DNA of 64,000 bases, from NCBI GenBank assembly GCA_045863335.1, contig BTVY01000039.1, forward strand, positions 1 to 64,000, written 5' to 3'. The position numbers and the translations under genes were made by a program. The stretch is from Candidatus Hydrogenedentota bacterium. GTDB taxonomy: Bacteria; Hydrogenedentota; Hydrogenedentia; Hydrogenedentales; SLHB01. The notes beneath the pieces are model-generated. The model was not told where the DNA came from. It saw only the letters and a program-made list of their open reading frames with translations, and ran no database searches. Of the stretch, positions 15,076 through 15,440 are shown one piece after another (positions within the stretch are counted from its first letter, which is position 1; the number at the start of each line of letters is the position of its first letter).

Positions 15076-15158
15076 CCTGCCTTCGAATGCGCATAGCGCA
15101 TTCTACCGTGGAAGACGCACGGCATTCCGCCGCGTCCAGAGACGATCGGAGGTGCATC

Positions 15159-15394
15159 ATGTTCAGCAAGAAGTCCGACTCCTTTCGACCACGAGAGGAC
15201 CAGTAAGCGCCGGAAAGGCTATCCTTCCGAGACGCGCGTGAAACGAGGGCGCCGAATCGTTGGCGACGGCAAGGAACTTTCCGAGAAGCTCGGCCGCAAC
15301 GACCTGTGCCCCTGCGGGTCGGGACGCCGCTTTCAAACGGTGCTGCCTACGATCCAAACAGTTTGACGGCGCACTCCGGGATGACTACTTTTAG
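15159..15394 (+). CDS. Small basic SEC-C zinc-finger protein requiring two +1 frameshifts (join 15159-15185, 15187-15333, 15335-15394; optional third shift extends it to 15401)
   Basis: SD GGAGGTG before ATG15159; [14 protein letters not shown] lies in frame +1 and KRCC in frame +2, together completing the SEC-C motif; each junction is TTT+C. Confidence 0.8.
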
Positions 15395-15411
15395 AGAATG
15401 AGCAATACCGA

Positions 15412-15440
15412 AGCCCGCGGAACGCAGCGTTCCGCGGGCT
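15412..15440 (+). terminator. GC-rich hairpin after the SEC-C gene
   Basis: AGCCCGCGGAACG-CAG-CGTTCCGCGGGCT, 13-bp perfect stem, no U-tract. Confidence 0.6.

Follow-up and report, generated by a model that had tools for sequence, protein, structure and literature searches.

How can a gene whose reading frame closes after 15 codons encode a conserved zinc-knuckle protein? The question is raised by contig BTVY01000039.1 of a Candidatus Hydrogenedentota bacterium (GCA_045863335.1; source genome, G000), of which positions 1 to 64,000 of the forward strand, 64,000 nt in all, were analyzed and are called the window here. The original prediction described a hidden SEC-C gene that becomes legible only when the reader skips one base at each of two UUU codons followed by a pyrimidine. 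The sequence bears out its starting point, namely the Shine-Dalgarno sequence GGAGGTG, the ATG at 15159 and a frame 0 that ends after 15 codons (TAA, 15204-6). Serial +1 shifts at UUU-pyrimidine are likewise real, but there are three sites rather than two, the missed one being UUU_UAG at 15389-92. The gene comprises 79 codons (15159-15401, plus strand) and its full reading needs all three shifts (Table 1). We assign it a product of 79 residues, with three shifts, because a short tail beginning with arginine is conserved after the last phenylalanine in two other species of the same genus (G003 and G004) and in the family described below.

Table 1. Features of the SEC-C gene and its flanks, in window coordinates.
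Feature	Position	Strand	Description	Basis or detail
Shine-Dalgarno sequence	15148..15154	+	GGAGGTG	4 nt 5' of ATG 15159
Segment 1	15159..15185	+	9-codon leader, ATG ... TCC TTT, frame 0	sequence reading
Shift site 1	15183..15188	+	UCC_UUU_CGA; C15186 skipped; 0-frame A-site codon CGA	sequence reading
Segment 2	15187..15333	+	49 codons; basic N-terminal region and first half of zinc motif (Cys-Pro-Cys)	sequence reading
Shift site 2	15331..15336	+	CGC_UUU_CAA, inside the zinc motif; C15334 skipped	sequence reading
Segment 3	15335..15391	+	19 codons; second Cys pair and C-terminal region to last Phe	sequence reading
Shift site 3	15389..15394	+	UAC_UUU_UAG; T15392 skipped; 0-frame codon is the stop UAG	sequence reading
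Segment 4	15393..15401	+	AGA GAA TGA (Arg-Glu-stop)	G003 synonymous (AGG GAA TGA); G004 identical
Hairpin	15412..15440	+	13-bp G+C-rich stem, 10 nt 3' of the stop, without a U tract	-26.7 kcal/mol; z -5.3; 0/200 shuffles as stable

Start codons within the shifted frames are scarce. The frame of the middle segment (+1) has no ATG, GTG or TTG before GTG15238, just as had been stated. The same statement fails for the third frame, where a TTG lies at 15260 (ORF 15260..15394), upstream of the junction, though it has no Shine-Dalgarno sequence.

The completeness of the zinc motif depends on the second shift. We used the 77-residue reading in which each in-frame TTTC is taken as one step, that is, with shifts 1 and 2 made (P0001). 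Pfam SEC-C (PF02810) matches this protein with 37.5 bits over 19/19 profile positions, against a gathering cut-off of 20.4 bits, whereas the singly shifted frame scores 27.7 bits and covers profile positions 1-14 of 19. Thus the full match appears only after shift 2, in agreement with the prediction that the doubly shifted reading alone has the full motif. The protein also shows the other features of its family: its N-terminal block is basic, Glu-Lys-Leu-Gly-Arg-Asn-Asp precedes the knuckle, and the C-terminal part has Asp-Gly...Tyr-Phe-Arg-Glu. Likeness to solved structures in the PDB comparison is limited to about 20 residues, which are the knuckle itself (YchJ C-terminal peptide 9l6b_C, E 1.2e-8; SecA C-terminal domain 1sx0, E 4.6e-7), and no solved relative of the basic N-terminal and C-terminal regions was found there. 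The AlphaFold2 model has a mean pLDDT of 56.8, with low confidence outside the knuckle, and these outer regions are predicted to be disordered. The knuckle is common to SecA, YecA and YchJ, while P0001 lacks the SecA motor, the UPF0149/YecA body and the YchJ middle domain, SEC-C being the only domain that Pfam reports; the JGI label "YecA (UPF0149)" carried by relatives rests on the motif alone. We found no curated name for a small SEC-C family with a leader ORF.

The extra bases are confirmed by contigs from four independent runs, which cover the gene with zero inserted or deleted letters; three runs are DNA from three studies (X2, X3 and X4) and one is an RNA library (X6). One 3371-nt DNA contig spans 14903-15700 with 0 gaps. 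One 1450-nt contig from the RNA library spans 14900-15488, also with 0 gaps and with all bases kept; because DNA may be present in RNA libraries, it is weak evidence of transcription. The view that the frame breaks are not random sequencing indels therefore holds.

The gene is present in 3 of 41 related genomes, counting the source genome itself, G003 and G004, and in 4 of 135 genomes of a phylum-wide sample, the fourth being a species of another genus (G114); its distribution within the phylum is therefore patchy, a statement limited by the completeness of metagenome-assembled genomes. All four genomes need shifts at the leader phenylalanine and inside the zinc motif. In G003 and G004 each of the three sites falls on the Phe codon where the source genome has it, and the single rule that an in-frame TTT-pyrimidine means +1 decodes all three into proteins of 79-80 residues ending in Phe-Arg-Glu. 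Site 1 is UCC_UUU_C in both, site 2 is identical in G003, G004 and G114, and the latter has its third site at another phenylalanine (UUU_UGA). In G004 the last phenylalanine reads TTT-C AGA GAA TGA, and its unshifted frame would continue for dozens of codons through the hairpin. In the Shine-Dalgarno region, GGAGGTGCATCATG is unchanged across the three congeneric genomes.

Substitutions between these genomes are under purifying selection in the shifted frames, where change is mostly synonymous (pN/pS 0.14-0.48). For segment 2, pN and pS are 0.086 and 0.611 between the source genome and G004, and 0.027 and 0.164 against G003; for segment 3 they are 0.143 and 0.300 against G004, and 0.023 and 0.148 against G003, and a serine codon switches between TCC and AGC from the source genome to G004. 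The leader peptide of segment 1 is poorly conserved (pN 0.55 vs pS 0.37), and what conservation it has is confined to the terminal Ser-Phe.

To find relatives, one-genome-per-species contigs were searched with a degenerate DNA pattern for the SEC-C zinc motif carrying one extra base after TTT. It matched at least 120 stretches in as many genomes from about ten phyla, cultured isolates included (Acidobacteriota, Alpha- and Betaproteobacteria, Actinomycetota, Planctomycetota, Verrucomicrobiota, Chloroflexota, Gemmatimonadota, Armatimonadota, Melainabacteria and others). By a rough estimate, a pattern of about 40 bits should match about once by chance, so the split motif in at least 120 genomes is beyond chance. 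Frameshift-aware alignment decoded 117 of the 120 matches listed as one family; the remaining three are low-scoring and belong to other contexts. The motif-site shift is present in 117 of the 120, a sample chosen for that very shift. Among these listed loci, additional shift sites occur at other conserved Phe positions: following the Arg-Lys-Gly-Phe block (7), following Lys-Arg-Gly-Phe (12), following Ser-Gly-Arg-Phe (20) and at the last phenylalanine (54).

Because the pattern selects for the motif shift, metagenome contigs were also scanned with search patterns that lie upstream of the shift sites. The best 80 of 584 relatives were retained, which favors long in-frame matches; 75 of them could be decoded and 70 are complete. 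None of the 70 complete genes is free of shifts: 68 have at least one UUU-pyrimidine shift and two are shifted elsewhere only. In this sample of the best 80, the motif-site shift is present in 31 of the 73 loci that have a phenylalanine there. The number of sites per gene, three in the window, is two to five in relatives. Homologs, proposed as a test of the original prediction, are thus split-frame at the same Phe codons across phyla and not uniformly single-frame. As far as sequence comparison can tell, the locus is confirmed as a real, conserved and functional hidden SEC-C gene and not a private pseudogene.

A protein-database search with P0001 returned 1757 proteins of 42-135 residues at E<=1e-3, the best of them 60-86% identical. 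Among the best 120 of these 1757, 70 end right after one phenylalanine, 21 end at the last phenylalanine, 18 break or vary at the motif, 9 have out-of-frame tails and 2 stay in frame to the conserved end. Three proteins (P0103, P0112 and P0121) run out of frame for about eight residues past the motif phenylalanine and then rejoin the conserved C-terminal frame, which implies a second, compensating frame change nearby. A phage search for the family gave no match, and a plasmid search gave three records. Two large plasmids of Candidatus Manganitrophus (CP114562.1 and CP114554.1) have a family member whose match is confined to query residues 2-47, with nothing annotated beneath it, consistent with a motif-site shift skipped by annotation. 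An Atlas look-up yielded nothing beyond SEC-C clusters.

The pooled genome and metagenome samples allow the shift rule to be examined codon by codon in the family core. TTT followed by C is shifted 229 times and read in frame 13 times (2 in the genome set and 11 in the metagenome set), and 9 of these 13 are TTT_CCN. TTT followed by T is shifted 104 times and read in frame 26 times, 23 of the latter being Phe-Phe doublets in which the placement of the shift is ambiguous. A shift is never required at TTT-A, TTT-G or TTC. The predicted contrast stands for TTT-G and TTC, and the shift at TTT-C has exceptions in the family, namely the 13 codons read in frame. The codon abandoned in the A site bears a translational signature: of the 104 UUU_U sites, 102 have a stop there in the 0 frame, and at UUU_C sites it is CAA (135), CAG (41), CCG (33), CGA (16) or another codon (4). 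In the source genome CGA makes up 8.9% of arginine codons.

Most family loci begin as the window does. An ATG leader ORF is found in 149 of 185 loci, most with an upstream SD-like motif, and has a median length of 13 codons. It ends in phenylalanine one frame behind the main frame, at UUU_UGA in 58 loci, at UUU_C in 89 (mostly CGA) and at another UUU_U in two. With a leader of this kind in 149 of 185 loci, site 1 of the window corresponds to the most conserved site of the family. The codon before UUU at leader sites is UCC in 49 of 172 and UGC in 48 of 172, and C/U-GA follows. Other lineages include 49 loci with an ATG directly 5' of the main frame, where termination and reinitiation could replace the leader shift; this does not apply to the window, because the main frame has no start codon there.

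The end of the gene obeys the same logic. Among the 117 family genes, those whose last phenylalanine is TTT-C give, in the +1 frame, R(E/D/K)-stop or R-stop in 23 of 26 cases; the other three also begin with arginine and stop within five codons, while the 0 frame continues. Where the last phenylalanine is TTT-T, the 0 frame meets a stop in 27 of 28 cases, and all 27 give a short +1 tail with an initial arginine. Members with TTC or another residue at this position end in frame with R, RD or RE.

Some loci need a shift at a place other than phenylalanine as well (19 of the 120 genome loci listed and 11 of the 70 complete metagenome genes). These shifts fall at proline codons, CUU_C or AUU_C, or involve two extra bases in Actinomycetota. 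The minor sites observed are CTT-C or CGG-C after Cys-Cys-Leu, CTT-C before Glu-Lys-Leu-Gly, and ATT-C (L172, L180, L190, L197, L202, L208; L094, L106; L069), and they all fit slippage of a tRNA with G34 from NUU to UUC. Five actinomycetotal loci (L040, L088, L134, L137, L152) have two extra bases at a Gly-Phe-Pro / Ser-Glu junction (TTC CCY YT AGC), with TAG in one frame. The junction of L152 is C_CCT_TTA, a classical -1 slippery heptamer. From their sequence, these junctions may reflect a -1 shift, a +2 shift or two events.

We also looked for signals around the shift sites and the gene. No SD-like 4-mer occurs at a consistent spacing upstream of the leader or last-Phe sites in the family, and the G-rich sequence just 5' of site 2 encodes Gly-Ser-Gly-Arg. 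No match to an Rfam element was found, and searches with sigma-70 promoter and terminator patterns found none. The strong hairpin expected after the gene is indeed there (Table 1); it does not match the terminator pattern, and G004 has a different hairpin at the equivalent position. Upstream, 56 nt 5' of the ATG, the window contains an inverted repeat, GAATGCGC-ATA-GCGCATTC (15085-15103). Its core, ATGCGCATA, is invariant in the source genome, G003 and G004, and its right arm is not preserved in G003. This repeat may serve as an operator or as an element of the RNA.

A special decoding capacity of the whole genome would leave traces in its tRNAs and codon usage. Aragorn finds 45 tRNAs in the source genome, whose assembly may lack some. 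Only one of these is a tRNA-Phe(GAA), its loop has the normal 7 nt, and none of the 45 has an 8-nt loop or a four-letter anticodon. A weak 90-nt tRNA-like call with a two-letter anticodon and poor stems (G000:C26:32014-32103) is probably a false positive. The 3686 ordinary genes of this genome contain 6433 in-frame TTT-C and 2253 in-frame TTT-T codons, and they do not avoid TTT-C genome-wide: the share of TTT before C is 0.405, against 0.28-0.48 for other NNT/NNC pairs. With one ordinary tRNA-Phe and 6433 unavoided in-frame TTT-C, general four-base decoding is excluded, and the four-base-reading tRNA suggested in the original prediction is not among the tRNAs found. The shift behavior is specific to the gene, since ordinary genes of this genome pass through the same codon context thousands of times with normal reading.

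A crude coding-potential scan of the source genome for other genes frameshifted at TTT-pyrimidine, insensitive to small genes as it missed the SEC-C gene itself, gave 19 candidates, only one of them strong. That candidate (C21:95880-95930, L238:2888-2930) was rejected as a frameshift: it consists of two minus-strand ORFs (429 and 389 aa) that are 20 nt apart, with an ATG 13 codons past the junction.

The neighborhood varies across the family. No protein family other than the SEC-C one, antisense artefacts aside, recurs within 3 kb in at least five of the 120 loci listed. In the window the neighbors are an NAD-dependent epimerase-like protein, two proteins without a Pfam match and a TAT-signal protein. 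The suggestion that homologs might lie near tRNA or RNA-repair genes applies to a minority of the 120 listed loci (a tRNA in 13, tRNA arrays in 5 and a Ro60-like neighbor in 3) and not to the window, which has no tRNA gene and no Ro60-like gene beside the SEC-C gene. The arrays, of 5 to 24 tRNAs, lie 0.2-4 kb upstream on the same strand as the SEC-C gene (L063, L068, L108, L131, L148), and one tRNA of the L148 array is called with a suppressor-like anticodon, TTA. Family loci contain 58 tRNAs in 883 kb, concentrated in a few loci. At L066, one of the three with a Ro60-like neighbor, this neighbor lies at 2347-3969 and matches the Ro60 vWA domain (Pfam PF25045, E 1.3e-16).

Judged from the sequence data as a whole, the locus is very probably one functional gene that would yield a 79-residue SEC-C knuckle protein through three serial +1 slips at UUU-pyrimidine. 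The tetranucleotide context UUU_Ynn is known as +1-prone in bacteria (PMC5009743). Ribosomes would start at the ATG at 15159 behind its Shine-Dalgarno sequence and slip forward three times. At each slip, tRNA-Phe(GAA) would occupy the P site on UUU, with G34 wobble-paired to U, and would then re-pair a single base further on. The new partner would be UUC at sites 1 and 2, where the G:C pair is of Watson-Crick type, and UUU at site 3. Each slip would compete with decoding of the 0-frame A-site codon (the minor arginine codon CGA at site 1, CAA at the second site and the stop UAG at the third), and ribosomes that fail to slip would terminate within 0-10 codons. The product would be a basic, largely disordered protein whose zinc knuckle, Cys-x-Cys...Cys-Cys, is of the SecA type. 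Stops and CGA are enriched in the frame that is left, which suggests a translational event and fits both the +1 proneness of UUU_Ynn and a competition of the prfB kind between slipping and A-site decoding; we infer that this event is slippage in the ribosomal P site. Three serial shifts without a recognizable stimulator should give a very low yield. Either modest efficiency is enough, the demand for the protein being small, or some feature in cis or in the nascent chain underlies the mRNA-specific shifting.

The same protein would result if the extra bases were removed or skipped at the RNA level, by transcriptional slippage or editing, and the message then read in a normal frame. Polymerases do slip at T-runs. 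Transcriptional slippage typically takes a homopolymer run of 7 or more, however, while the runs here are only T3 (sites 1 and 2) and T4 (site 3). The RNA-library contig keeps every base, though library DNA is a possible source of it, and such a process would leave the stops at UUU_U sites and the leader UGA and CGA unexplained, so that we regard it as very improbable. We give the same small chance to a frameshift-suppressor tRNA devoted to these sites, or to UUUY being read as four bases in general. Reading every TTT-pyrimidine as one phenylalanine plus a skipped base fits the shifted TTT-C and TTT-T core sites, and some family loci adjoin tRNA arrays. Against this stand the single 7-nt-loop tRNA-Phe(GAA), in an assembly that may lack some tRNAs, the thousands of TTT-C and TTT-T codons read in frame in ordinary genes, the unshifted TTT-C within the family itself and the lack of a tRNA in the window.

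Two further explanations deny the shifts a role. The gene may act only through short frame-0 products, a leader peptide or a truncated protein, with the downstream frames untranslated. Gene callers do find truncated forms, as in the many best matches that end right after one phenylalanine, and serial shifts imply little full-length product. Yet the shifted frames are under purifying selection, and the zinc motif stays incomplete unless site 2 is crossed. The Arg-(Glu/Asp)-stop ending, too, is conserved in the frame that the last phenylalanine sets, and the leader peptide is the poorly conserved part. We consider this account improbable, if slightly less so than the two before it. A frame that breaks two to three times within 240 nt, together with the fragments that gene callers report, could also suggest a decaying pseudogene or an assembly artefact. 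This has next to no probability in our judgment, given that four independent runs agree, the same codons are shifted across species and phyla, substitutions are mostly synonymous, and the family includes isolates and assemblies with differing contig-naming styles.

If serial slippage at UUU-pyrimidine is indeed how the gene is read, the yield of full-length protein might depend steeply on how prone ribosomes are to +1 slippage, and hence on the state of tRNA-Phe or the supply of Arg-tRNA or release factors; this is a guess. The need for two to five successive slips beside UGA, UAG or CGA would make the yield rise steeply with hypomodified or damaged tRNA-Phe, short supply of release factors or of Arg-tRNA(ICG). 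Loss of the position-37 modification of tRNA-Phe increases +1 slippage, and it is on this ground that a translational-fidelity sensor, as the original prediction proposed, is a reasonable hypothesis. The family would then be a putative gauge of reading-frame maintenance, with the zinc knuckle as an output acting on the ribosome or on SecB-type partners, an idea that we put forward tentatively and think rather unlikely.

To our knowledge, programmed +1 frameshifting has been described for very few genes of bacterial chromosomes, mobile elements aside, and prfB is the classic case. Here, one small gene requires three +1 events at a minimal UUU-pyrimidine site, with conservation from Actinomycetota to Pseudomonadota. 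The literature searched contained no published description of a SEC-C frameshift family, although the GeneTack cluster tables (PMC3711429) may list it. If the shifts are confirmed, a minimal site can bring ribosomes to slip in one mRNA and yet be read faithfully elsewhere, the determinants of +1 slippage at tRNA-Phe could be studied in a system that nature provides, and annotation pipelines would systematically truncate or miss this family. Since cultured carriers exist, among them Hansschlegelia plantiphila VKM B-2347, Inquilinus limosus DSM 16000, Sphingomonas naasensis KIS18-15 and Rhizobium puerariae, direct testing is possible. Should the sensor reading also prove true, the family would add a new class to the known translational sensors, one that about ten phyla share.

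Among known systems, prfB offers the nearest bacterial parallel. It has one site, CUU_UGA_C, with an internal Shine-Dalgarno sequence 3 nt upstream, and its product reads the stop, which results in autoregulation. Like prfB, the SEC-C gene is a bacterial chromosomal gene in which a P-site tRNA wobble-paired on NUU would re-pair in the +1 frame (UUU_C at sites 1 and 2, UUU_U at site 3). The prfB-type stop in the A site is found at site 3 (UAG) and at nearly all UUU_U sites of the family, while sites 1 (CGA) and 2 (CAA) have sense codons. Unlike prfB, the gene has several sites and no SD-like stimulator at fixed spacing, and its product is a zinc-knuckle protein without a known link to termination. 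The shift-site sequence itself is the same as in the bacterial UUU_Ynn cases, the Yersinia YopN-TyeA fusion among them (PMC5009743); those cases run at a low level or yield an alternative fusion product, whereas in the SEC-C gene the shift is obligatory for the only conserved product, serial and conserved across phyla. The same paper gives UCC_UUU_CGU as the PA-X site of influenza A and reports an E-site effect besides the motif (PMC5009743). Site 1 of the window, UCC_UUU_CGA, closely resembles it, but PA-X is a low-efficiency side product of a eukaryotic virus and the shift in the bacterial SEC-C gene is obligatory. Many +1 shifts at defined codons of one coding sequence are reported for Perkinsus cox1, at all AGG and CCC codons, and for Euplotes (PMC2952869, PMC10235951). 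In Perkinsus and Euplotes, such decoding is organelle- or genome-wide, whereas in the SEC-C case it is specific to one gene.
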